Source of the DNA: Candidatus Campbellbacteria bacterium GW2011_OD1_34_28
GTDB lineage: Bacteria > Patescibacteriota > Minisyncoccia > Phycocordibacterales > UBA12079
NCBI GenBank assembly: GCA_001029775.1
Contig: CP011215.1
Span: forward strand, 618,303 to 682,302
DNA: 64,000 nt
Direction of reading: 5' to 3'
Shown here in pieces: positions 548-46,135 of the stretch (positions are counted from its first letter, which is position 1; each line of letters starts with the position of its first letter). The position numbers were made by a program, and so were the translations under genes. The notes beneath the pieces were generated by a model. The model was not told the origin of the DNA. It saw only the letters and a list, made by a program, of their open reading frames with translations, and ran no database searches.

Positions 548-3004
548 TTATATAACAATATTCACCAATTTGTTCTTTACATAAATAACCTTTTTTGGTT
601 CATTCCCCGCCATCCATTTTTTAGACGCTTCTTGTTCCATTGCTAGTTTTTTCACATCATCATCACTTGTCCCCTCTTCTACCTGTATCTCTGCTCTTAC
701 TTTTCCGTTTATTTGAATCACAACTGTATAAGAAGTATCTTTCATCAAATTTTCGTCAAACTTTGGCCAAGGTTCGTTGTGAATAGAATTTGTATTTCCT
801 AAAATCTGCCAAAGTTCTTCTGTAATATGTGGAGCAAATGGAGAAAGAATTTTCAAAAAACTTTCATAATCTTGTCGTGCAATCTCTTCTTCCTTTTCCA
901 TATCATTAATCAATATCATCATTGCACTGACAGCGGTATTATATTTTAGATTATCAATATCATTTGAAACTTTTTTAATCGTCTTGTGCAACAAATTTTG
1001 GATTTTGTTTTCTACTTTCAACTCTCCACCTTTCACTTTCGAACTAAGTCTCCACATTTTCTCCAAAAATCTATACACCCCGACAATGTTGTCTTCGTTC
1101 CACATCACTTCATCTTCTAGAGGTGCGGCAAAAAGCATGTAAGTTCTAACAGAATCAGCCCCGAATCTGTTTACCATATCATTTGGATTGATAACATTTC
1201 CTTTTGATTTAGACATCTTTTTCCCTTGCCCATCCAATACCATTCCCTGATGACGCAATCTTTGAAATGGTTCATCAAAATTTACCAAACCGATTTTATT
1301 CATTGCTTTTACAAAAAATCTTGCAAACAACAAGTGCATATATGTGTGTTCTGCCCCTCCAATATACAAATCTACCGGTAACCATTTTTTGCGAGTTTCT
1401 GAGCAAAACTCTTTTTCATTATGAGGGTCGGGGTATCTCAAAAAATACCAAGAAGAATCCACAAAAGTATCCATAGTATCGTATTCAGGCACCCAACCTT
1501 CACCAAAAATTTTTTCTGTCCTTTCTTTCAGTTCTTTTGATTTTGCGAGAGGAGAGATCCCTGTTGGAACAAAATCTACATCCGCAGGCAAAGTCCATGG
1601 CAGATTTTCTTCGGGAACCAAGTGAGCTTCCCCATCTGGAGAATAAACAACAGGAATCGGACAACCCCAATATCTTTGACGAGAAATAGACCAATCACGC
1701 AGACGGTAATTAGTTGTCATTTTTCCTCCAACAAATTTTGTAATCTCTTTCTTTGCTTCTATATTATACATATCGGTAAATTTGCCAGAATTTACCAAAT
1801 AACCAGATTCCGAAAAACATTTTTTACCACTTCTCACATCACCGATAAACTCTAAAACCCCTTTTTGTTCAGAATGTTTAATTAAAGGATCACGGTTTTC
1901 AACAATCATTGGGCTTACAACTGGTTCTATTTTTAAATTATATTTCTTCGCAAACTCCAAATCCCTTTCATCATGCGCCGGCACCGCCATAATTGCACCT
2001 GTTCCATATCCACCCAAAACATAATCCGCAATAAAAACAGGGATTTCTTCTTGTGTTGCAGGATTAATAGCAAAAATTCCTTCCAGTTTTACACCGGTTT
2101 TTTCTTTCGCCTCGATTCTGTCCATCTCCGTTTTATTTTTTGCTCTCTCTATATAATTTTTAACCTCACCTAAATTCTGAATTCTATTTTCTAAATTCTC
2201 AATTATTGGATGTTCCGGAGCAAGCACCATATAAGTCGCACCAAACAAAGTATCAGGCCTTGTCGTAAACACCTTAATTTTAAGTTCTGAATTCTGAATT
2301 CTAAATTCTATTTCTGCTCCTTCACTTTTTCCGATCCAGTTAACCTGATTCTTTTTCGTATGTTCAGGCCAGTCTATCTTTTCCAAACCTGTAATCAAAT
2401 CATCTGCAAAATCAGTAATTTTGAAAAACCACCCGGGGACTTCTTTCTGAATAATCTCTGCTCCACATCTCTCACACTTGCCATCCACTACTTGTTCATT
2501 GGCAATAACAGTTTGGCAAGAAGAACACCAATTTGTCTTTGATGTTTTTTTGTAAACCAAATCGTTTTTATAAAATTGACTGAATATCCATTGAGTCCAT
2601 TTGTAATATTTTGGATCACTCGTCACTGCTTTTTCATCAAAATCATAAGCAAGACCCAACATTTTCATTTGACCAATATAAGTATTGATATTTTTTTCTG
2701 TTGTTTCAGCAGGATGAACTTTTGTCTTGATGGCATAATTTTCCGCAGGCAAACCAAAGGCATCAAAACCTTGTGGGTGCAAAACATTAAATCCCTGCAT
2801 CTTTTTGAAACGATAATAAACATCGCTCGCGGTATAACTTTCGGTATGTCCCATATGCAAACCGTCTCCTGATGGATAAGGGAACATATCCAAAATATAA
2901 TATTTTGGTTTTGAAGTATCGTCTTTATCTATTTTAAAAGCCCCTGTTTCCAACCAGTGCTTTTGCCATTTAGATTCAATATCTTTGTGATTATATTTCT
3001 CCAT
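548..3004 (-). CDS. leuS: Leucyl-tRNA synthetase (818 aa).
   Basis: HMGH(TESY) class I HIGH-type motif near the N-terminus, a KMSKSKGN motif, the CP1 editing region, and the typical bacterial LeuRS length and layout. Confidence 0.95.
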   Translation of the reverse strand: MEKYNHKDIESKWQKHWLETGAFKIDKDDTSKPKYYILDMFPYPSGDGLHMGHTESYTASDVYYRFKKMQGFNVLHPQGFDAFGLPAENYAIKTKVHPAETTEKNINTYIGQMKMLGLAYDFDEKAVTSDPKYYKWTQWIFSQFYKNDLVYKKTSKTNWCSSCQTVIANEQVVDGKCERCGAEIIQKEVPGWFFKITDFADDLITGLEKIDWPEHTKKNQVNWIGKSEGAEIEFRIQNSELKIKVFTTRPDTLFGATYMVLAPEHPIIENLENRIQNLGEVKNYIERAKNKTEMDRIEAKEKTGVKLEGIFAINPATQEEIPVFIADYVLGGYGTGAIMAVPAHDERDLEFAKKYNLKIEPVVSPMIVENRDPLIKHSEQKGVLEFIGDVRSGKKCFSESGYLVNSGKFTDMYNIEAKKEITKFVGGKMTTNYRLRDWSISRQRYWGCPIPVVYSPDGEAHLVPEENLPWTLPADVDFVPTGISPLAKSKELKERTEKIFGEGWVPEYDTMDTFVDSSWYFLRYPDPHNEKEFCSETRKKWLPVDLYIGGAEHTYMHLLFARFFVKAMNKIGLVNFDEPFQRLRHQGMVLDGQGKKMSKSKGNVINPNDMVNRFGADSVRTYMLFAAPLEDEVMWNEDNIVGVYRFLEKMWRLSSKVKGGELKVENKIQNLLHKTIKKVSNDIDNLKYNTAVSAMMILINDMEKEEEIARQDYESFLKILSPFAPHITEELWQILGNTNSIHNEPWPKFDENLMKDTSYTVVIQINGKVRAEIQVEEGTSDDDVKKLAMEQEASKKWMAGNEPKKVIYVKNKLVNIVI

Positions 3005-3042
3005 AATGTTCCCATTTTATCATAAAAATTTATAAGACTCAC

Positions 3043-3083
3043 ACCTATCCCAAAATTTTAACGACCGTTAAAATTTTAGGATA
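3043..3083. repeat. Palindromic repeat, family member 1: CCTATCCCAAAATTTTAACG-AC-CGTTAAAATTTTAGGATAG.
   Basis: Near-perfect 19-bp arms. Lies in the 5' region of leuS and 3' of the PaaX-like gene. Further copies at 3751, 27817, 28733, 31379 and 44725. Confidence 0.85.
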
Positions 3084-3116
3084 GTTGCGATACTTTATAA
3101 TACTTTGTTATCTTTT

Positions 3117-3146
3117 GCGATTTCATGCGATTTCATGCGATTTCAT
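3117..3146. repeat. Tandem decamer repeat (GCGATTTCAT) x3.
   Basis: Three exact consecutive copies read directly from the sequence. Confidence 0.9.
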
Positions 3147-3166
3147 GTTTTATTTTATAACCAATT

Positions 3167-3727
3167 TCACTTCAAACCAAATACCTCTTTTAACCATTTT
3201 TCATTTTCAATTCGATTAACCTCCATATACAAAACATCGCTATCAATAAAAATTTTTGTCTTCAACAAAAAAATCAATTCTTCGCATTCATAAGGAAAAA
3301 CCCAAACGCTGTTCTGCAATTTAACAAAACCAAGTCTATTTAAATTGGATCTGAGCAAATCCCTAAGACCTCTCTTTTTTTCTTCAACATCAAAAATTAT
3401 CACCCTCCATTTTTTGTCCCATTTTTTTGGTTTTTCTATTTTTAAATCTCCCAATTCATATCTTCCAATCAATTCATCGCCTTTTTTGGTAAGTTTAATA
3501 AATTCAGAATCACCTTTTCTAACTTTTTCTAGCATACCCTTTCTCAACAAATTCTTGATTGACTCATTCATATTATATTTTTCCTTAACCCATCTTTTTT
3601 TATTTGGGGAAAATTGTTTAATGACTTGAAGAGCATTGGGAGCCACGATAGCAACACCAATTAATCCGGCTGTCGCTACGGTCGTTAAAATAATTTTTTG
3701 AATATTTATATTTTTTGAATCGTCCAT
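3167..3727 (-). CDS. PaaX-like transcriptional regulator: N-terminal TM helix, winged HTH (..LTKKGDELI..), and a WDKKW...FDV...LQNSVWVFPYEC core with the Cas2/VapD-type fold.
   Basis: Resembles E. coli PaaX (WDGKWLLLLSE...; yRLTekG wing). The core matches the Cas2 beta1-alpha1-beta2 signature (hhhFDV...R..L...G.rvQNSV[FW].c). The gene is flanked on both sides by 40-45 bp palindromes. Confidence 0.6.
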   Translation of the reverse strand: MDDSKNINIQKIILTTVATAGLIGVAIVAPNALQVIKQFSPNKKRWVKEKYNMNESIKNLLRKGMLEKVRKGDSEFIKLTKKGDELIGRYELGDLKIEKPKKWDKKWRVIIFDVEEKKRGLRDLLRSNLNRLGFVKLQNSVWVFPYECEELIFLLKTKIFIDSDVLYMEVNRIENEKWLKEVFGLK

Positions 3728-3750
3728 TCATATATTTATAGCATAAATCT

Positions 3751-3795
3751 CACCTATCCCGAAATTTTAACGGTCGTTAAAATTTTGGGATAGGT
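3751..3795. repeat. Palindromic repeat, family member 2: CACCTATCCCGAAATTTTAACG-GT-CGTTAAAATTTTGGGATAGGTG.
   Basis: 22-bp arms with one mismatch. Lies immediately upstream of the PaaX-like gene start. Confidence 0.85.
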
Positions 3796-3930
3796 GACGG
3801 TTTATATGTTTTTTATATTTCATATTTTATATTTTGTATTTTGTATTCTATATTTTTGTAATTCAAAGTTTTCTAATTCAATTCAAAAATTTAAAGCCTG
3901 AGTATCAATTAATTCATTCTTTAAAATTTA

Positions 3931-3964
3931 AAAAGCCCCGATTGAGGTCGGGGCTTTTGTTTTG
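3931..3964. terminator. Rho-independent terminator downstream of ORF 3970-4377 (-).
   Basis: AAAAGCCCCGA ttgagg TCGGGGCTTTTG. GC stem with flanking A- and T-runs. Confidence 0.75.
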
Positions 3965-3969
3965 ATAAC

Positions 3970-4377
3970 TTATGCCGTTGCTGGTGTCACAACAGGCTCA
4001 CTGTTAATTTTTGAAGGGTCATCTTCTTTTATGGCCGTAATAATTTTATTGACATATAAAATCATGACTTCCCTGTCTGGATTATATTTACAAGACTCGT
4101 AGTACAATTCCCAAAAAATAAATTTTGTTTTACCCACAACAAAATTATTGCAAATTCCTTTTTGAAAAAGCGGACATTCCTCACACCTAAAATTTGAGAT
4201 ATTTTTCACATCAAATTCAATACAATAACCACATTCACCTTTCAACCGAGGAGTAGTCCCGACCTGCAAAAAATCATCCATCATAGTTTGTTTAATCTCA
4301 AGCCATTTTTTTAATGAATTATTCCACCTTTCAGGCCATTCTTTTGAATAGACATGTTGCGGTAAATTTTTCGACAT
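3970..4377 (-). CDS. Cys-rich hypothetical protein (135 aa).
   Basis: ORF with its own terminator. CGYC...CEEC...C motifs suggest metal binding. No recognisable family. Confidence 0.5.
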   Translation of the reverse strand: MSKNLPQHVYSKEWPERWNNSLKKWLEIKQTMMDDFLQVGTTPRLKGECGYCIEFDVKNISNFRCEECPLFQKGICNNFVVGKTKFIFWELYYESCKYNPDREVMILYVNKIITAIKEDDPSKINSEPVVTPATA

Positions 4378-7171: not shown

Positions 7172-7211
7172 AAGCTTAGTTTTTAGTCATTAGTTTTTAG
7201 TTTTTAGAAAA

Positions 7212-13753: not shown

Positions 13754-13989
13754 AATTTTAATAAATTAAATTAGTTTATAAGTTTATATTTATTTGCCAT
13801 TTATATTAAATATAAAAAATGTCTTATTTTACTTTTTGTCTTTAGTTGTTTTTTATTTATTTTTTTATTTACATAGTTTTTTAAAAAAAATTAAGATTGA
13901 TAATTCTCGACCTTTCTTATTACAGACAATAAATATGTAAGTTTTTATTGAATGCAAAAAAGACTCTTTTAAAGAGCTTCTAGAATTAC

Positions 13990-14085
13990 TGAGGTAGATT
14001 GCCGAGGTAGAATTACCAAAAGCGTGCCAGCGTGGAATGAGGTAGAGAGTGAGAGGTAGAGTGCTTGAGGTAGAGTGACTGAGTA
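13990..14085. repeat. Five direct copies of GAGGTAGA (iteron-like) within about 90 bp.
   Basis: ctGAGGTAGAttgccGAGGTAGAatt...atGAGGTAGAgagtgaGAGGTAGAgtgcttGAGGTAGAgtgactGAGTAGAta. Confidence 0.8.
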
Positions 14086-14212
14086 GATATTTTTTTAATT
14101 AACCTAATATCAATTATATAGATATATACCTGTATATGTCAACTTTAAAAATGTATATTTTTTGTAATCAAAAAAACCTTATTTAAAAGCTTTTTTAGGC
14201 TTATACAAAAAG

Positions 14213-14524
14213 TTATCCACAGTTTTTAAACTTGAGTTATCCACAGTTTAAAAACTGTGGATAACTTAAAAAACGTCGTTGAATTTAAATTATTTTTAGA
14301 AAAATGAAAAAAGCCGCCGAAGCGACTTTTTTCAATGTAGATATTAATCCGAAAATTAATATCTACATTGTATCCACAGATCCGAAAATCTACGGATACA
14401 ATGTAGATATAAAACCGAAATTTTATATCTACAGCGTACTTACTAGTCCGAAGATTAGTAAGTACATTTCTATCTTAACCAATTGAGATAATTTGTCAAT
14501 ACTTTTTCGATTAACTGTGGATAA
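14213..14524. promoter_or_regulatory. Cluster of DnaA boxes (TTATCCACA). Perfect 9-mers at 14213-14221 (+), 14237-14245 (+), 14256-14264 (-) and 14516-14524 (-). One 8/9 box (gTATCCACA) at 14370-14378.
   Basis: Boxes 2 and 3 form a perfect palindrome AGTTATCCACAGTTTaaAAACTGTGGATAACT. Four perfect copies of a single 9-mer within 312 bp is far above chance in 64 kb. Confidence 0.7.
14307..14466. repeat. Array of five tandem hairpins with a conserved CCGAA(A/G) loop (UUCG-type loop on the minus strand) and variable stems.
   Basis: H0 GCCGC-cgaa-GCGAC; H1 ATGTAGATATTAAT-ccgaaa-ATTAATATCTACAT; H2 TATCCACAGAT-ccgaaa-ATCTACGGATA; H3 TGTAGATATAAAA-ccgaaa-TTTTATATCTACA; H4 TACTTACTAG-tccgaag-ATTAGTAAGTA. 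Confidence 0.8.
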
Positions 14525-14556
14525 CTTGGAAACAATTAATTTAAAAGGTTGGCTTA

Positions 14557-22354: not shown

Positions 22355-22486
22355 ATGCTTTGGACAATAATAATCGTTTTGTTTATTCTATGGCTTCTCG
22401 GATTTAGTTTTAATGTAGGAGGTAATCTTATTCACACTTTACTTGTTATTGCGCTCATCGTCCTTATTGTTAACCTCTTATCTTAA
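22355..22486 (+). CDS. Small hydrophobic protein of the lmo0937 family (43 aa), MLWTIIIVLFILWLLGFSFNVGGNLIHTLLVIALIVLIVNLLS. Absent from the ORF track because it is under 60 aa.
   Basis: Read directly from the sequence. Near-textbook match to the lmo0937/DUF5670 family (MLWTII..LL..WLLGF...GG.LIH.LLVIA). Followed by a strong terminator. Confidence 0.6.
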   Translation: MLWTIIIVLFILWLLGFSFNVGGNLIHTLLVIALIVLIVNLLS

Positions 22487-22518
22487 ACATAACAAATCTA
22501 AAGAATGAACCAGAAACA

Positions 22519-22560
22519 AAAATGCCGAAATTTATGCGACCGCATAAATTTCGGCATTTT
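22519..22560. terminator. Bidirectional terminator with a long hairpin.
   Basis: AAATGCCGAAATTTATGCG acc GCATAAATTTCGGCATTT, an 18-bp stem. Confidence 0.8.
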
Positions 22561-22601
22561 TGCTTACTTATTACTTTAATCTTGCTACTTAATGCTAGCA
22601 G

Positions 22602-24989: not shown

Positions 24990-25048
24990 AATAAAATTTT
25001 TATTCTAAAAATTTCAAATCCTAAATTCTAATACCTAAATCCTAAACA

Positions 25049-25068
25049 CCTGCCTGCCGGCAGGCAGG
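25049..25068. repeat. 20-bp perfect GC-rich palindrome CCTGCCTGCCGGCAGGCAGG, 60 nt upstream of the mreB start.
   Basis: Perfect palindrome. Shares a 16-nt core with the copy at 4507-4522. Confidence 0.85.
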
Positions 25069-25170
25069 AATTCAAATTTTTTAATTTTCCAATTTTCAAA
25101 ACTTTTTGTATTTTGAATTTTGGATTTTTTGAGTTTGTTTAGAATTTAGAGTTTAGTGCTTAGAATTTTT

Positions 25171-27789: not shown

Positions 27790-27816
27790 TAGTTTTATAT
27801 ATATAAAAACAATCTT

Positions 27817-27859
27817 AAAATTCTGACGACCGTTAAAATTTTGAGATAGTTTTTCTATT
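27817..27859. repeat. Palindromic repeat, family member 3 (degenerate): ...CTTAAAATTCTGACG-AC-CGTTAAAATTTTGAGATAG....
   Basis: Shares the ACGACCGTTAAAATTTTG(A/G)GATAG arm with members 1 and 2. The flanks match the reverse complement of member 4. Confidence 0.75.
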
Positions 27860-27932: not shown

Positions 27933-28721
27933 CTAGGCGGTTTTTATATTTTCCTCCGCCGTATCTTCGGAATTGAGTCTTTTTATTTCTTCAAAAATTG
28001 CTTTTGCATTTTGTTCAATAAAATGACGACGATTTTGAATCAAAGTGTTAAAAAGATCAACACGATTTTCTTTTAAATAAAAACGCTCATCAGTGTCTCC
28101 TAAATTCTCAAAAGACAAAGCCGGGAAACAATGAAAACAAATAAAAGTATGGTCCCACAACATTTTTGAGTAAAGACCGAGCAGGTCATAATATTTATTG
28201 ATTTGGTAATTATTGTTTAATACGAGATTTAACCCATTCAAATCCTTCTTTAACTCATCAATGTCAATATTTAAACGCGATCCGCAAAAATTGCTGATAT
28301 CAATTATCAGTTGAGGTCTATATTTGGGGGTAATCACTTCCGGCAAATCTTCGGCCAAATACAAAACTATATTATTTCTTACTCGTTCCAAACTGGACTT
28401 ATGAAAGTGGTTTGCCTTTTCCACCATTTTAATTAAATGATCCTCGAAAAGCCTTCTCTGACAAAACTCTTCAAAGATCAATGCGAAAATAAAACTTGGG
28501 ATGAGAGACATCACAAGAAATAAATGTACGCTATCAGAATTAAGGTTCTCCTCCCCTGTTAAATGGTGAAGAATGAGTAAAGTAATTAGTCCAAAAATAC
28601 AAGAAAGTAAAAACCAATTCCAACAAAATCTTTTAATATTCACAAGACCTCCATTTATAAGTTTAAAAGACCAAAACCAATTTCCTTTTGTAATACTGCA
28701 AAAAATGAGGTTAAAAGTCAA
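27933..28721 (-). CDS. Two-TM membrane protein with a cytoplasmic domain (262 aa). Paralog of ORF 28832-29539. TTG start in the track.
   Basis: N-terminal TM hairpin. The C-terminus (...YLKENRVDLFNTLIQNRRHFIEQ...EEIKRL) aligns with YLFKENILPFKLNFFFQQLREIRNYFEE...EIQRL of the neighbouring gene. Flanked by palindrome members 3 and 4. Confidence 0.5.
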   Translation of the reverse strand: MTFNLIFCSITKGNWFWSFKLINGGLVNIKRFCWNWFLLSCIFGLITLLILHHLTGEENLNSDSVHLFLVMSLIPSFIFALIFEEFCQRRLFEDHLIKMVEKANHFHKSSLERVRNNIVLYLAEDLPEVITPKYRPQLIIDISNFCGSRLNIDIDELKKDLNGLNLVLNNNYQINKYYDLLGLYSKMLWDHTFICFHCFPALSFENLGDTDERFYLKENRVDLFNTLIQNRRHFIEQNAKAIFEEIKRLNSEDTAEENIKTA

Positions 28722-28732
28722 GAAAAATAAAA

Positions 28733-28775
28733 CTATCCTAAAATTTTAACGACCGTCAGAAGTTTAAGATTGTTT
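28733..28775. repeat. Palindromic repeat, family member 4: CTATCCTAAAATTTTAACG-AC-CGTCAGAAGTTTAAGATTG.
   Basis: The left arm is identical in type to members 1 and 2. Lies in the promoter region of ORF 27933-28721. Confidence 0.75.
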
Positions 28776-28791
28776 CTATATTTAAAACAAT

Positions 28792-28834
28792 AACAGCCGA
28801 AGATTTCGCACACGAAACCTTCGGCTGTTTTTTA
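28792..28834 (-). terminator. Terminator downstream of ORF 28832-29539.
   Basis: ACAGCCGAAG atttcgcacacgaaac CTTCGGCTGT followed by TTTTTT. Confidence 0.7.
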
Positions 28835-29539
28835 TTCTTGATCCTCAAGTTCAAGCTTCTCAAGACGCTGAATTTCTTTTTTCAACTCGTCTTGTTTTTC
28901 TTCAAAATAATTTCTTATTTCTCTCAGTTGCTGAAAGAAAAAATTAAGTTTGAAAGGAAGAATATTTTCTTTAAATAAATAAGCGCTAGATAGCCCTCCT
29001 TCCACCAATTTAAACTCTGGAAAATATCCACATTTAGCGGGGTAATTTAAAGACTGAGTTATATCCAAAAAAATACCCAAAAGTTTGTCATATCCTCCGT
29101 CATGTTCACCAAACCGTAAAGAAGAACGAAGTTGAATAACACATCCAGAAAGAAATTGTGCCGTGCAATCTTCACTTAGTAAAGACGAGTCAATTTTTTC
29201 TTTTTTTGAACCAATCACCAACACCCAAGCGGGGTGTCGTAAAATATTTTTTGATCTGGAGAGATACTCAAAAACAAGACTCATTGCAGTTACGACGTTG
29301 TTTTTGTATAACTCGTTAATTTCCTTTATCTCTGTGATTATATATTTTTCGTATGCCCTCTTTTCGGAAAAAACCTGCCAAACGAGTGACAAAAGTAGCC
29401 CAAAAAAAGAAGACAAAGAAAGTATAAACAAAGATCCCTTACCACTCAAAGCTGAATCTTGTGTAACAAAAGTTTTTAAAAGACACAAAAAAGCTAATAA
29501 CAAAATAAAAAAGAAAACGGAACGGACAAAAATCATCAT
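28832..29539 (-). CDS. Two-TM membrane protein with a cytoplasmic domain (235 aa). Paralog of ORF 27933-28721.
   Basis: See the paralog alignment under ORF 27933-28721. N-terminal TM hairpin. Confidence 0.5.
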   Translation of the reverse strand: MMIFVRSVFFFILLLAFLCLLKTFVTQDSALSGKGSLFILSLSSFFGLLLSLVWQVFSEKRAYEKYIITEIKEINELYKNNVVTAMSLVFEYLSRSKNILRHPAWVLVIGSKKEKIDSSLLSEDCTAQFLSGCVIQLRSSLRFGEHDGGYDKLLGIFLDITQSLNYPAKCGYFPEFKLVEGGLSSAYLFKENILPFKLNFFFQQLREIRNYFEEKQDELKKEIQRLEKLELEDQE

Positions 29540-30054: not shown

Positions 30055-30110
30055 TTGCTTCTTACACCCTACACCTTACACCTTTCTCCTTATACCTTAT
30101 TCCTTCTTAT
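30055..30110. repeat. Low-complexity (TAAGG/GTGTAAG)n-type element overlapping the tgt stop codon. Inverted copy of 33481-33530.
   Basis: Reverse complement reads ATAAGAAGGAATAAGGTATAAGGAGAAAGGTGTAAGGTGTAGGGTGTAAG. It shares TAAGGTATAAGGA and AAGGTGTAAGG with the fmt 3' element. TAA occurs in all three frames. Confidence 0.8.
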
Positions 30111-31305: not shown

Positions 31306-31378
31306 AATGAAACAGTATAAAGTCTGGAAAGTCGAAAGTCCATAAAAATTGTTTACCAAAAAACTCACGAGGTCTGAA

Positions 31379-31416
31379 ATGTGCAAAGTTTTGACGACCG
31401 TCAAAACTTTGCACAT
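31379..31416. repeat. Palindrome, family member 5: ATGTGCAAAGTTTTGACG-AC-CGTCAAAACTTTGCACAT (perfect 18-bp arms), in the tgt/def divergent intergenic region.
   Basis: Perfect palindrome sharing the (G/A)ACGACCGT(C/T) centre with members 1-4. Confidence 0.85.
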
Positions 31417-31499
31417 TTTAAACACCTCTTAATACCTAGTGTATTCAAATATTAAATACCCGCTTGCACAGGCAAGCTTGCTACTTTATACTAAATTCA

Positions 31500-32628: not shown

Positions 32629-33489
32629 ATGGTGAATTTAAAGATAGCGTTTTTTGGGACACCAGAATTTTCTGCAAGAATTTTGGATAAAATGAAAGAG
32701 GGAGAATTTTCTCCATCTTTAATAATTGCAACACCCGACAAACCAAAAGGAAGGAATCTTGTTATGACACCGCCCTCAACAAAAATATGGGCAGAACAAA
32801 ATAATATTGATGTCCTACAGCCAACAAAACTAAAAGCTCCTGAATTTTTAGACGAATTAAAAAAGACCGACTGGGATTTATTTGTCGTTGCTTCGTACGG
32901 TAAAATAATTCCTCAAGATGTTTTGGATATTCCCAAATACGGAACAATAAATATCCACCCTTCTTTGTTGCCTCGTCTTCGAGGGGCTTCTCCAATGCAG
33001 TCCGCGATTTTAAAAGAGAACGAAACAGGAATGACAATAATGCTAATGGATGCTGATATGGATCACGGTCCTATACTGAAACAAGAAAAATTGGATATCA
33101 AAAAATGGCCTCCAAAAATTAATGAACTGGAGGACATGATGGTAGAAGTCGGAGGAAGACTTTTAAACGAAGTTATACCACTATGGATAAGTGGAAAAAT
33201 AAAACCAAAAGAACAAGATCATAACAAAGCAACATATATTGATAAGATAAACAAAGAAGAAGCTCTAATAAATTTTGATGATGATCCTTTTTGGAATTAT
33301 AGAAAAATACAAGCCTTGCAAAATTATAAACCTTATTTTTTTACAGAAAGAAATGACAAAAAAATAAGAATAATAATCAAAGAAGCAAAATTTGAAGATG
33401 GAGAGTTGATAATTATGAAAGTATTGCCGGAAGGAAAAAAAGAAATGGATTATCAAGATTTTTTGAGAGGAAGTAACAATAAGGTGTAA
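32629..33489 (+). CDS. fmt: Methionyl-tRNA formyltransferase (286 aa).
   Basis: IAFFGTPEFSARIL N-terminus. HPSLLPRLRGASPMQSAIL (the SLLP formyltransferase motif). A C-terminal OB-like domain is present but short. Confidence 0.9.
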   Translation: MVNLKIAFFGTPEFSARILDKMKEGEFSPSLIIATPDKPKGRNLVMTPPSTKIWAEQNNIDVLQPTKLKAPEFLDELKKTDWDLFVVASYGKIIPQDVLDIPKYGTINIHPSLLPRLRGASPMQSAILKENETGMTIMLMDADMDHGPILKQEKLDIKKWPPKINELEDMMVEVGGRLLNEVIPLWISGKIKPKEQDHNKATYIDKINKEEALINFDDDPFWNYRKIQALQNYKPYFFTERNDKKIRIIIKEAKFEDGELIIMKVLPEGKKEMDYQDFLRGSNNKV

Positions 33490-33530
33490 GGAGTAAGGTA
33501 TAAGGAATAAGGGGTAAGTAATAAGAAAAG
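33481..33530. repeat. Low-complexity (TAAGG)n-type element overlapping the fmt stop codon.
   Basis: AAGGTGTAAGGAGTAAGGTATAAGGAATAAGGGGTAAGTAATAAG. Inverted counterpart at 30055-30110. Confidence 0.8.
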
Positions 33531-44724: not shown

Positions 44725-44764
44725 AATGTGTATAAAAAGAACGACCGTACTTTTTATACACATT
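44725..44764. terminator. Palindrome AATGTGTATAAAAAGAACG-AC-CGTACTTTTTATACACATT between convergent vanY-like and uvrC genes. Family member 6 by its ACGACCGT centre.
   Basis: 19-bp arms with one A.A mismatch. Contains the same AACGACCGT core as the palindrome family. Confidence 0.7.
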
Positions 44765-45998: not shown

Positions 45999-46135
45999 AT
46001 TTTAAATTCCAAATTACAAGCACCAAACCACAAACAATATTCAAATTCTAATAACCAAAATTCAAAACTATTTAGTATTTGATGTTTATTATTTAATTTT
46101 TGTTTGTAATTTGTTATTTGTAATTTGTGATTTTG

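Follow-up and report, generated by a model that had tools for sequence, protein, structure and literature searches.

Within a 64,000-nucleotide stretch of the genome of Candidatus Campbellbacteria bacterium GW2011_OD1_34_28 (contig CP011215.1; the whole stretch is referred to here as the window), a minus-strand gene at 3167..3727 encodes a PaaX-like protein of 186 residues, mini-PaaX, and lies between two copies of a long palindrome. The main result of this analysis is that such a layout, with the gene placed between its own palindromes, is a property of the family to which the protein belongs, and that the palindromes are specific for each paralogue. The domain identity of the protein, the palindromes, their link to the gene across the family, the pairwise identity of the copies flanking one gene and their PaaX-like geometry are all established here. 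We regard it as probable, with some reserve, that mini-PaaX represents a family of minimal PaaX-type autorepressors acting on private 38-bp operators, and that its sites in the window extend to the promoter region of leuS and to both flanks of a membrane-protein gene. The family is expanded in Patescibacteria, with many paralogues per genome and a private palindrome for each of them. These bacteria, also known as the candidate phyla radiation (CPR), have tiny genomes with few recognisable regulators, and to our knowledge almost nothing is known about the control of their genes. Full-text literature searches returned no description of the gene-palindrome association, an absence that is in itself no proof of novelty.

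Palindromes around the mini-PaaX genes

The upstream copy in the window, A2 (3750..3797, TCACCTATCCCGAAATTTTAACG-GT-CGTTAAAATTTTGGGATAGGTGA), is made of 23-nt arms with one mismatch around a 2-nt centre (folding z-score of −7.0) and ends 22 nt before the mini-PaaX ATG. The downstream copy, A1 (3039..3090), with 25-nt arms, three mismatches and a 2-nt centre (z −8.7), is separated from the mini-PaaX stop codon by 76 nt and from the leuS ATG that comes next (3004) by 34 nt, and is followed on the minus strand by a TATAAA hexamer at 3029-3034. The centre of both copies is embedded in CG-NN-CG. The initial annotation had described palindromes of 40 bp on both sides of the gene; both flanks do carry one, but lengths of 46-52 bp were measured. 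It had also proposed that the palindrome recurs at other promoters, which is the case before leuS and upstream of a membrane-protein gene, but not for the copy at 27812..27847 (A3), found between convergent genes and beside a canonical terminator. A3 is a degenerate version, with one good half-site (TATCTC), a diverged one (AATCTT) and a weak fold (z −3.2), and A4 (28728..28772) is a hybrid hemi-site with one good and one diverged half-site, which does not fold (z 0.33). These two bracket the gene of a 262-residue membrane protein (27933-28721, with a likely GTG start near 28643 after GGAGG), and A4 sits 13 nt upstream of the −35-like hexamer of that gene, TTGACT. A 20-nt arm pattern finds six matches in the window for 0.01 expected, and a 24-nt core finds four for none in 100 shuffled sequences.

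A difference between strains was also found at one of these sites. The bracketed gene is part of a tandem family of membrane proteins of 235-262 residues with no Pfam or PADLOC match (27933-29539 of the window, compared with positions 1-1592 of locus L086), and the latter locus, from a 97-98%-identical strain, contains an extra gene for a 251-residue membrane protein between two A-type palindromes. In A4, the left arm equals that of one of these palindromes, and the centre together with the right arm equals those of the other, which places the junction of the indel inside 3-4 nt at the palindrome centre. The hybrid has lost the fold and kept the sequence similarity.

To what extent the arrangement is general can be seen in a survey of 80 loci with relatives taken from species-representative genomes, of which the 61 with complete flanks were counted (523 candidate stretches encoded a relative, all of them from metagenome-assembled genomes, MAGs, of Patescibacteria type). 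Counting palindromes with arms of at least 12 nt, within 150 nt of the start or 200 nt of the stop, 32 of the 61 loci have one by the start, 35 by the stop and 21 at both ends. This corresponds to 3.19 palindromes per kb at the gene ends versus 0.26 per kb in the remainder of those loci, or a ~12-fold enrichment. The sequence of the centre follows the same trend, as CGACCG/CGGTCG is found in 41 of 74 gene-flanking palindromes and in 4 of 47 palindromes elsewhere; CTATAG (7) and CGATCG (4) are minor types. Upstream palindromes mostly end 11-38 nt ahead of the ATG. The family itself is large, with 3,416 clusters at 50% identity for E <= 0.001 and 1,861 for E <= 1e-10; the proteins in the best 150 clusters are nearly all of ~160-260 residues and most have the N-terminal segment described below. 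At least eight paralogues occur in one MAG, and no relative was found in 2.9 million IMG/VR viral contigs. The public annotation of these proteins is mostly 'hypothetical', and often, wrongly, 'CRISPR-associated endonuclease Cas2'. A metagenome scan done with the palindrome returned five loci.

The pairing between each gene and its sites is evident from the arms, which share 91% identity between the upstream and downstream copies of one gene (n=14) and 47% between loci. The paralogue P0002 (82% identical to the window protein, whose database entry is P0001; locus L001) has a perfect palindrome of 46-48 bp on both sides with other arms, AAAATTACGAAATTTACGCG-AC-, and the differences between P0001 and P0002 are concentrated before residue 100. 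Three paralogues of one genome (L002, L005 and L008) have three unrelated arm sequences, the arms of two loci from another genome (L003 and L006) are likewise unrelated, and three copies of the palindrome are found inside 1.5 kb in both L003 and L008. The orthologous locus L002 keeps the order of mini-PaaX (69% identical), palindrome and leuS (80% identical), but both copies of its palindrome bear arms other than those of the window (TACCAAAATATTTGCG), which indicates that sites and protein have diverged together. No clear diagnostic residue of the protein was found by eye for the type of centre (CGRYCG, CTATAG or CGATCG).

When 43 CGRYCG-centred palindromes were superposed on their centres, the symmetry profile revealed invariant positions 1-3 (G, C, then A or G; 0% of arm mismatches), variable positions 4-8 (12-19%), an A-rich tract across all families at positions 9-12 (0-5%), a family-specific and strictly symmetric block at positions 13-17 (0-12%) and a symmetry that fades from position 19 onward (at least 37%). 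The strictest symmetry is that of positions 9-16 (0-7%). This profile points to a functional unit of ~38 bp with specific half-sites of 5-6 bp that are ~26 bp apart. According to a review (PMC9493321), the site of Escherichia coli PaaX is TGATTC(N27)GAATCA, and at Px, its own promoter, PaaX acts as a repressor that sterically hinders RNA polymerase. At the sequence level, the geometry of the palindromes matches that of this operator, and A2, with its half-sites TATCCC and GGGATA 26 bp apart, is proposed as a candidate autoregulatory operator.

A very different origin of the symmetry would be an RNA-level element, in which the palindromes would be transcribed into hairpins that serve for termination or stability and the Cas2 fold, similar to an RNA recognition motif, would bind or cut the hairpin RNA. 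As single strands the palindromes do fold strongly (z −5.7 to −9.8), T-runs come after some of the downstream copies, palindromes B and D (see below) are the only hairpins between their convergent genes, with shoulders rich in A and T, and some Cas2 and VapD proteins are ribonucleases as judged by the titles of their PDB entries. A hairpin selected for pairing alone is nevertheless expected to show its tightest constraint beside the loop, and here pairing is weakest precisely there, at positions 4-8. On the gene strand, G.T mismatches between the arms do not significantly outnumber those of A.C (18 vs 11), and 42 of 71 mismatches are non-wobble. An Rfam scan of 2900-4100 gave no family at threshold, only spurious matches to miRNA-precursor hairpins far under it. 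The opposite constraint, the lack of a G.T bias and the lack of an Rfam match argue for double-stranded protein-binding sites of the PaaX type. Moreover, most downstream copies have no T-run, canonical GC-rich terminators already adjoin A2, A3 and A4, and A4 is similar in sequence yet has lost the fold. Altogether, an RNA element is in our opinion very unlikely.

Architecture of the mini-PaaX protein

The window protein is 100% identical to P0001 (DCZ46_03165, a hypothetical protein of a Candidatus Campbellbacteria genome), whose contig, DNLU01000003.1, shows the same neighbours. The open reading frame, with an ATG start, and its motifs (KLTKKG, WDKKWRVIIFDV and LQNSVWVFPYEC) are present exactly as initially annotated. 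The only significant Pfam match corresponds to PaaX_M (PF20803; residues 101-172, E 2.3e-20, 72.9 bits for a cut-off of 24), whereas the Cas2 family PF09827 reaches just 16.4 bits (E 0.011, cut-off 23.8). Among the NCBIfam models, TIGR01573 (cas2) stays at 23.2 bits, under its cut-off of 24.5, and the PaaX equivalog TIGR02277 at 38.6 bits (cut-off 264.55), covering residues 56-152 only. Canonical PaaX proteins have the architecture PF07848 + PF20803 + PF08223, and all those compared carry PF07848. In mini-PaaX, Pfam finds no match to this N-terminal winged helix even at E <= 10, nor to the PaaX_C effector domain (PF08223), and the end of the protein at residue 186 aligns to PaaX residue ~173. 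A profile comparison of the family with 14 canonical PaaX proteins (hhalign) gives 96.4% probability and E 1e-9 for residues 50-172 against PaaX 54-173, with the alignment starting at the recognition helix and leaving helices 1-2 of PaaX unmatched. The protein is thus outside both the PaaX equivalog and Cas2, as a distinct mini-architecture made up of a recognition helix, a wing and the middle domain of PaaX.

Structure prediction was run twice with AlphaFold (AF2), with 39 and 113 homologues, and both models agree for residues 53-186 (pLDDT ~78-96). They show a helix (55-62), a two-stranded wing (66-79), a second helix (81-91) and a ferredoxin-like domain with the order beta-alpha-beta-beta-alpha-beta. 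Residues 1-52 stay below a pLDDT of 50 in both runs, with no improvement from 113 sequences. Codons 53-92 (3452..3571, minus strand) comprise the recognition helix, the beta wing with the KLTKKG motif and the next helix (pLDDT ~78-94, hhalign to PaaX), and codons 101-186 (3170..3427, minus strand) the PaaX_M or Cas2-like domain, for which Foldseek against the PDB retrieves E. coli PaaX (8a39), then Rv0674 and then many structures of Cas2 and VapD. The initial view of a PaaX-like protein with a Cas2-fold core is therefore confirmed, and the Cas2-like character of the central domain of PaaX was known already, as recorded in Pfam PF20803. Column entropy is 1.03 in this highly conserved domain and 1.7-2.2 in the variable residues 37-100 (1.84 for codons 53-92), so that the winged-helix part is proposed, from the alignment, as the variable portion that would bear specificity. 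Invariant columns among 113 sequences are W103, W107, D113, R122, Q138, S140, W142, P145, C148, K156 and E174. In an alignment with the Cas2 protein SSO8090, weak as it is (E 0.32), D113 falls on the Asp of 'YDV' and Q138/S140 on 'QRSAF'; where mini-PaaX keeps these Asp113 and Gln138/Ser140 motifs, hhalign places LLLLSEG and LAPSLM in the enterobacterial PaaX.

Nothing in the surroundings suggests a CRISPR adaptation module, in agreement with the first reading of the locus, as Cas1 domains are absent from the called genes around P0001 and P0002 and the window has no CRISPR-like spaced repeat array. PADLOC defence models give weak Cas2 matches only. No paa genes are near mini-PaaX, its neighbours being leuS, a ychF-like gene and hypothetical genes, and tblastn detects no second mini-PaaX gene within the window. 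A PadR-like factor, which had been contemplated as an alternative, was discarded, with no PadR match in Pfam and an E of just 0.81 for PadR in the PDB.

The hydrophobic N-terminus deserves a closer look. Codons 11-30 (3638..3697, minus strand) encode the conserved segment KIILTTVATAGLIGVAIVAP, a candidate membrane anchor. The 19-residue Kyte-Doolittle maximum of the N-terminus is 2.15, and the equivalent segment of 107 homologues is hydrophobic in all of them (mean 2.09, minimum 1.63). This conservation as protein in more than 100 homologues supports a start codon upstream of the segment, as initially annotated. Residues 11-36 are free of charges and a Lys/Arg-rich stretch comes right after. 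Flank charges in the family are +3.0 and +4.3, with the C-terminal flank more positive in 67 of 107 proteins, so that with both flanks positive the positive-inside rule gives an ambiguous topology; counted from the sequence, the flanks of the window protein (+1 vs +4) favour N-out/C-in, in which the DNA-binding part would stay cytoplasmic. The segment may tether mini-PaaX to the membrane. The additional proposal of a one-component sensor is not supported, because with no PaaX_C and at most 10 residues ahead of the segment the protein has nothing to sense with.

An ordinary soluble regulator, whose N-terminus would be buried as helices 1-2 of the winged helix and/or serve as a core for oligomerisation, is a serious, if less favoured, possibility, and the operator model would still fit it. 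In sequence conservation the segment equals the Cas2-like domain (column entropy of 1.13 in 107 sequences vs 1.03), with near-invariant residues (K11, L14, A18, G21, A29, P30 and N31) that are unusual for a passive anchor, and it stands where PaaX has its helices 1-2, in a protein whose winged helix is otherwise reduced to one helix and a wing. The positive charges on both flanks and the AF2 models, in which the conserved Pro30 interrupts the segment and leaves one helix at 9-24 and another at 30-39, point in the same direction. Against a soluble protein stand the ~25 uncharged residues in a row with a hydropathy of at least 1.63 in 107 out of 107 homologues, the Lys/Arg-rich stretch directly after them, which recalls the cytoplasmic face of membrane anchors, the lack of profile similarity to the N-terminal domain of PaaX in either Pfam or hhalign, and the fact that AF2 never packs the segment on the rest of the protein, even with 113 sequences.

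Proposed autorepression and its alternatives

In the favoured model of a minimal autorepressor, a recognition helix and a wing precede the Cas2-like domain, through which PaaX dimerises. A dimer would bind the two-fold symmetric operator of ~38 bp in such a way that the two variable winged-helix units would read the family-specific half-sites beside the A-tract (TATCCC...GGGATA in the window) and the conserved Cas2-like dimer would be placed over the conserved centre RCG-AC/GT-CGY. Ending 22 nt before the start codon, A2 must overlap or abut the promoter, and the most likely action of mini-PaaX would be to repress its own gene by blocking the access of RNA polymerase, in the manner of E. coli PaaX at Px. 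The presence of A1 before leuS and of the half-degenerate A3 and A4 around the membrane-protein gene suggests that these two genes would be co-regulated.

Several observations weigh against this model. In 19 of 34 loci, the gene beyond the downstream copy is convergent, so that the copy cannot be the operator of the next gene there, and the orphan palindromes B and D, between convergent genes, are left unexplained by a simple operator. The centre keeps a conserved AC/GT asymmetry, in random orientation with respect to the gene, for which a symmetric dimer offers no obvious reason. Helices 1-2 were not detected in the winged helix, and neither AF2 model gives a confident structure for residues 1-52. 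For a plain dimerisation module, the Cas2-like domain is conserved beyond what would be needed, and it keeps the Cas2 motif residues Asp113, Gln138 and Ser140. In favour of the model, the similarity of the arms correlates weakly with the identity of the winged helix (rho 0.12, p 0.02) and not with that of the Cas2-like domain (rho −0.03), but the pairs compared are non-independent. As for the promoter, a sigma-70 consensus scan gave no full or convincing candidate at mini-PaaX. A −10-like hexamer (TATAAA, 3735..3740, minus strand) stands between A2 and the ATG, at 9 nt from the former and 7 nt from the latter, and its role is tentatively suggested at most, given that such a hexamer 4-10 nt before the ATG without a Shine-Dalgarno sequence does not discriminate in this AT-rich genome (46% vs 44% in control genes). 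On the same figures, a leaderless mRNA is retained as no more than a weak suggestion.

Some of these difficulties would disappear if mini-PaaX were, instead of or besides a regulator, a sequence-addressed Cas2-like nuclease or nickase, which we consider improbable. The winged helix would provide the address and the Cas2-like domain would act on the CG-AC/GT-CG centre, as in a REPtron-like system, where the gene and its flanking palindromes form a (domesticated) selfish unit whose palindromes disperse through intergenic regions and promote the gain and loss of cassettes. Cognate palindromes are indeed found on both sides of the gene, with several families per genome and an own gene for each, orphan copies occupy convergent intergenic regions, two different ones being adjacent in locus L085, and non-regulator genes are bracketed too (the 262-residue gene of the window and a small open reading frame in L003). 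The indel of the 251-residue gene joins exactly at a palindrome centre, and the invariant Asp113, Gln138 and Ser140, which canonical PaaX has lost and which align with motifs of Cas2, belong to the most conserved part of the protein. However, a constraint that is loose by the centre and strict at 9-16 nt corresponds to the geometry of a PaaX operator and not to a full-length hairpin, and the AC/GT centre shows no preferred orientation with respect to the gene. Neither is there any sign of gene mobility, as the genomic context is identical on 24 of 24 contigs for P0001 and on 23 of 23 for P0002, nor relatives among the viral contigs. The single indel can also be explained by breakage and repair of the palindrome or by unequal crossing-over between tandem paralogues, and we know of no case of Cas2 alone acting as a recombinase. 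A REPtron-like unit is therefore unlikely.

Bracketing could also reflect the function of a boundary or tethering protein, that is, a membrane-anchored clamp on palindromes at the edges of transcription units, acting as a roadblock, as an insulator or as a tie between chromosome and membrane rather than as a gene-specific repressor; Noc with its binding sites (NBS) offers a comparison. Such a role would account for whole genes being bracketed by copies, for their presence at promoters as well as at convergent gene ends, for the conservation of a hydrophobic N-terminus across the family and for the absence of an effector domain. We find it quite unlikely, since many paralogues with private specificity and few sites each would be an odd design for a structural protein, and since it depends on membrane anchoring, itself a candidate feature.

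The pairing of proteins and sites, whose geometry matches that of a PaaX operator characterised biochemically, offers dozens of natural protein/operator pairs to approach a recognition code and to predict regulons in uncultivated organisms. It also brings a correction for CRISPR surveys, in which the 'Cas2' hits of this family are not adaptation genes. The retention of Cas2 motif residues in a PaaX-like scaffold, together with the conserved asymmetric centre, leaves room for a catalytic or recombinational role. If the nuclease were real, we would face a REPtron-like unit built on a Cas2 fold, which would explain the convergent orphans, the bracketed genes and the indel with its junction at the centre, and a free-standing relative of Cas2 with specificity for DNA sequence, relevant to the origin of Cas2.

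Other elements of the window and known systems

Beyond family A, four palindrome families with the CG-AC/GT-CG centre and arms unrelated to each other are found as orphans, without a mini-PaaX gene nearby. Family B (22514-22565) lies between the convergent genes of a sigma factor and a holB-like protein, just downstream of a small open reading frame (22356-22487, plus strand) for a tiny hydrophobic protein of ~43 residues (MLWTIIIVLFILWLLGFSFNVGGNLIHTLLVIALIVLIVNLLS). Family C (31372-31423) is located between the divergent tgt and def genes, family D (44725-44764) between the convergent VanY and uvrC genes, and family E just outside the window (19247-19282 of L087). Of the 12 CGACCG/CGGTCG hexamers in the window, seven are centres of long palindromes. 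The two adjacent palindromes of the metagenome locus L085 (1469-1507 and 1526-1568), from different arm families, are 19 nt apart between convergent genes and, with no mini-PaaX gene nearby, recall the clustered repetitive extragenic palindromes (REP) known as bacterial interspersed mosaic elements (BIME).

Many intergenic regions of this genome contain tandem repeats (units of 7-10 bp, 3-7 copies), a feature that is not specific to the locus, with examples at 2170-2204, 7176-7207, 25016-25168, 30061-30105, 33478-33525 and 46069-46133. A perfect TGCGATTTCA repeat (3.2 copies, 3116-3147) is found between the mini-PaaX stop codon and A1, and a TTTTATA repeat (6.6 copies, 3811-3856) just outside A2; similar repeats adjoin the palindromes of L001, L005 and L064. 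Just upstream of the mini-PaaX gene, 3970-4377 (minus strand) encodes a 135-residue protein with no Pfam match, two paralogues of which (37-38% identity) are encoded a few kb beyond the window start (L087, 14887-15273 and 17130-17489). Elsewhere in the window, a non-coding stretch of 800 bp (13754-14556) contains five DnaA-box-like motifs, TTATCCACA / TGTGGATAA, in both orientations, and a tandem repeat of GAGGTAGAGTG (14038-14087). This stretch may be a replication origin, but dnaA and dnaN are not adjacent and the GC skew keeps its sign.

With regard to known systems, mini-PaaX is possibly similar to membrane-tethered factors such as ToxR and CadC in having a single hydrophobic segment and a DNA-binding domain that would be cytoplasmic; unlike them, it carries this segment at the N-terminus, which would leave no more than 10 residues outside and thus no periplasmic sensor. 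With REPtrons, formed by a RAYT (TnpA-REP) transposase and its REP sequences, the family shares a gene bracketed by two copies of its own palindrome, the coexistence in one genome of different palindrome families, with a separate gene copy for each, and the existence of further intergenic copies, some of them between convergent genes. The protein is however not an HUH/Y1 transposase, as Pfam and NCBIfam give PaaX_M and Cas2-like matches only, copies are few (four of family A in 64 kb and single ones of four other families) and the pattern of constraint suits recognition of double-stranded DNA by a protein better than a hairpin.

Cas2 is a subunit of CRISPR adaptation and VapD proteins are endoribonuclease toxins, and mini-PaaX resembles both in the ferredoxin-like fold, in the Asp that ends strand 1 and in a Q-x-S-V-aromatic motif, besides giving sub-threshold matches to several Cas2 models. 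It differs from Cas2 in staying under every curated threshold, in the fusion to a DNA-reading winged helix and in its surroundings, where the annotated loci show no adjacent cas1 and the window is devoid of CRISPR arrays, and by profile score it is clearly nearer to PaaX_M (72.9 vs 16.4 bits). PaaX is the phenylacetyl-CoA-responsive repressor of paa operons, a protein of ~310 residues in E. coli, in comparison with which mini-PaaX is shorter, with a hydrophobic N-terminus in place of PF07848 and no PaaX_C; it has many paralogues per genome and no paa genes nearby, keeps the Cas2 motif residues (the FDV Asp and QNSVW) that E. coli PaaX has replaced, and has an operator with a conserved centre and a second copy downstream of the gene. 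What both proteins have in common is the recognition helix and wing followed by a Cas2-like central domain, as seen in 8a39, a long two-fold operator with 6-bp half-sites ~26-27 bp apart and a site at the promoter of their own gene, Px for PaaX and a putative one for mini-PaaX.

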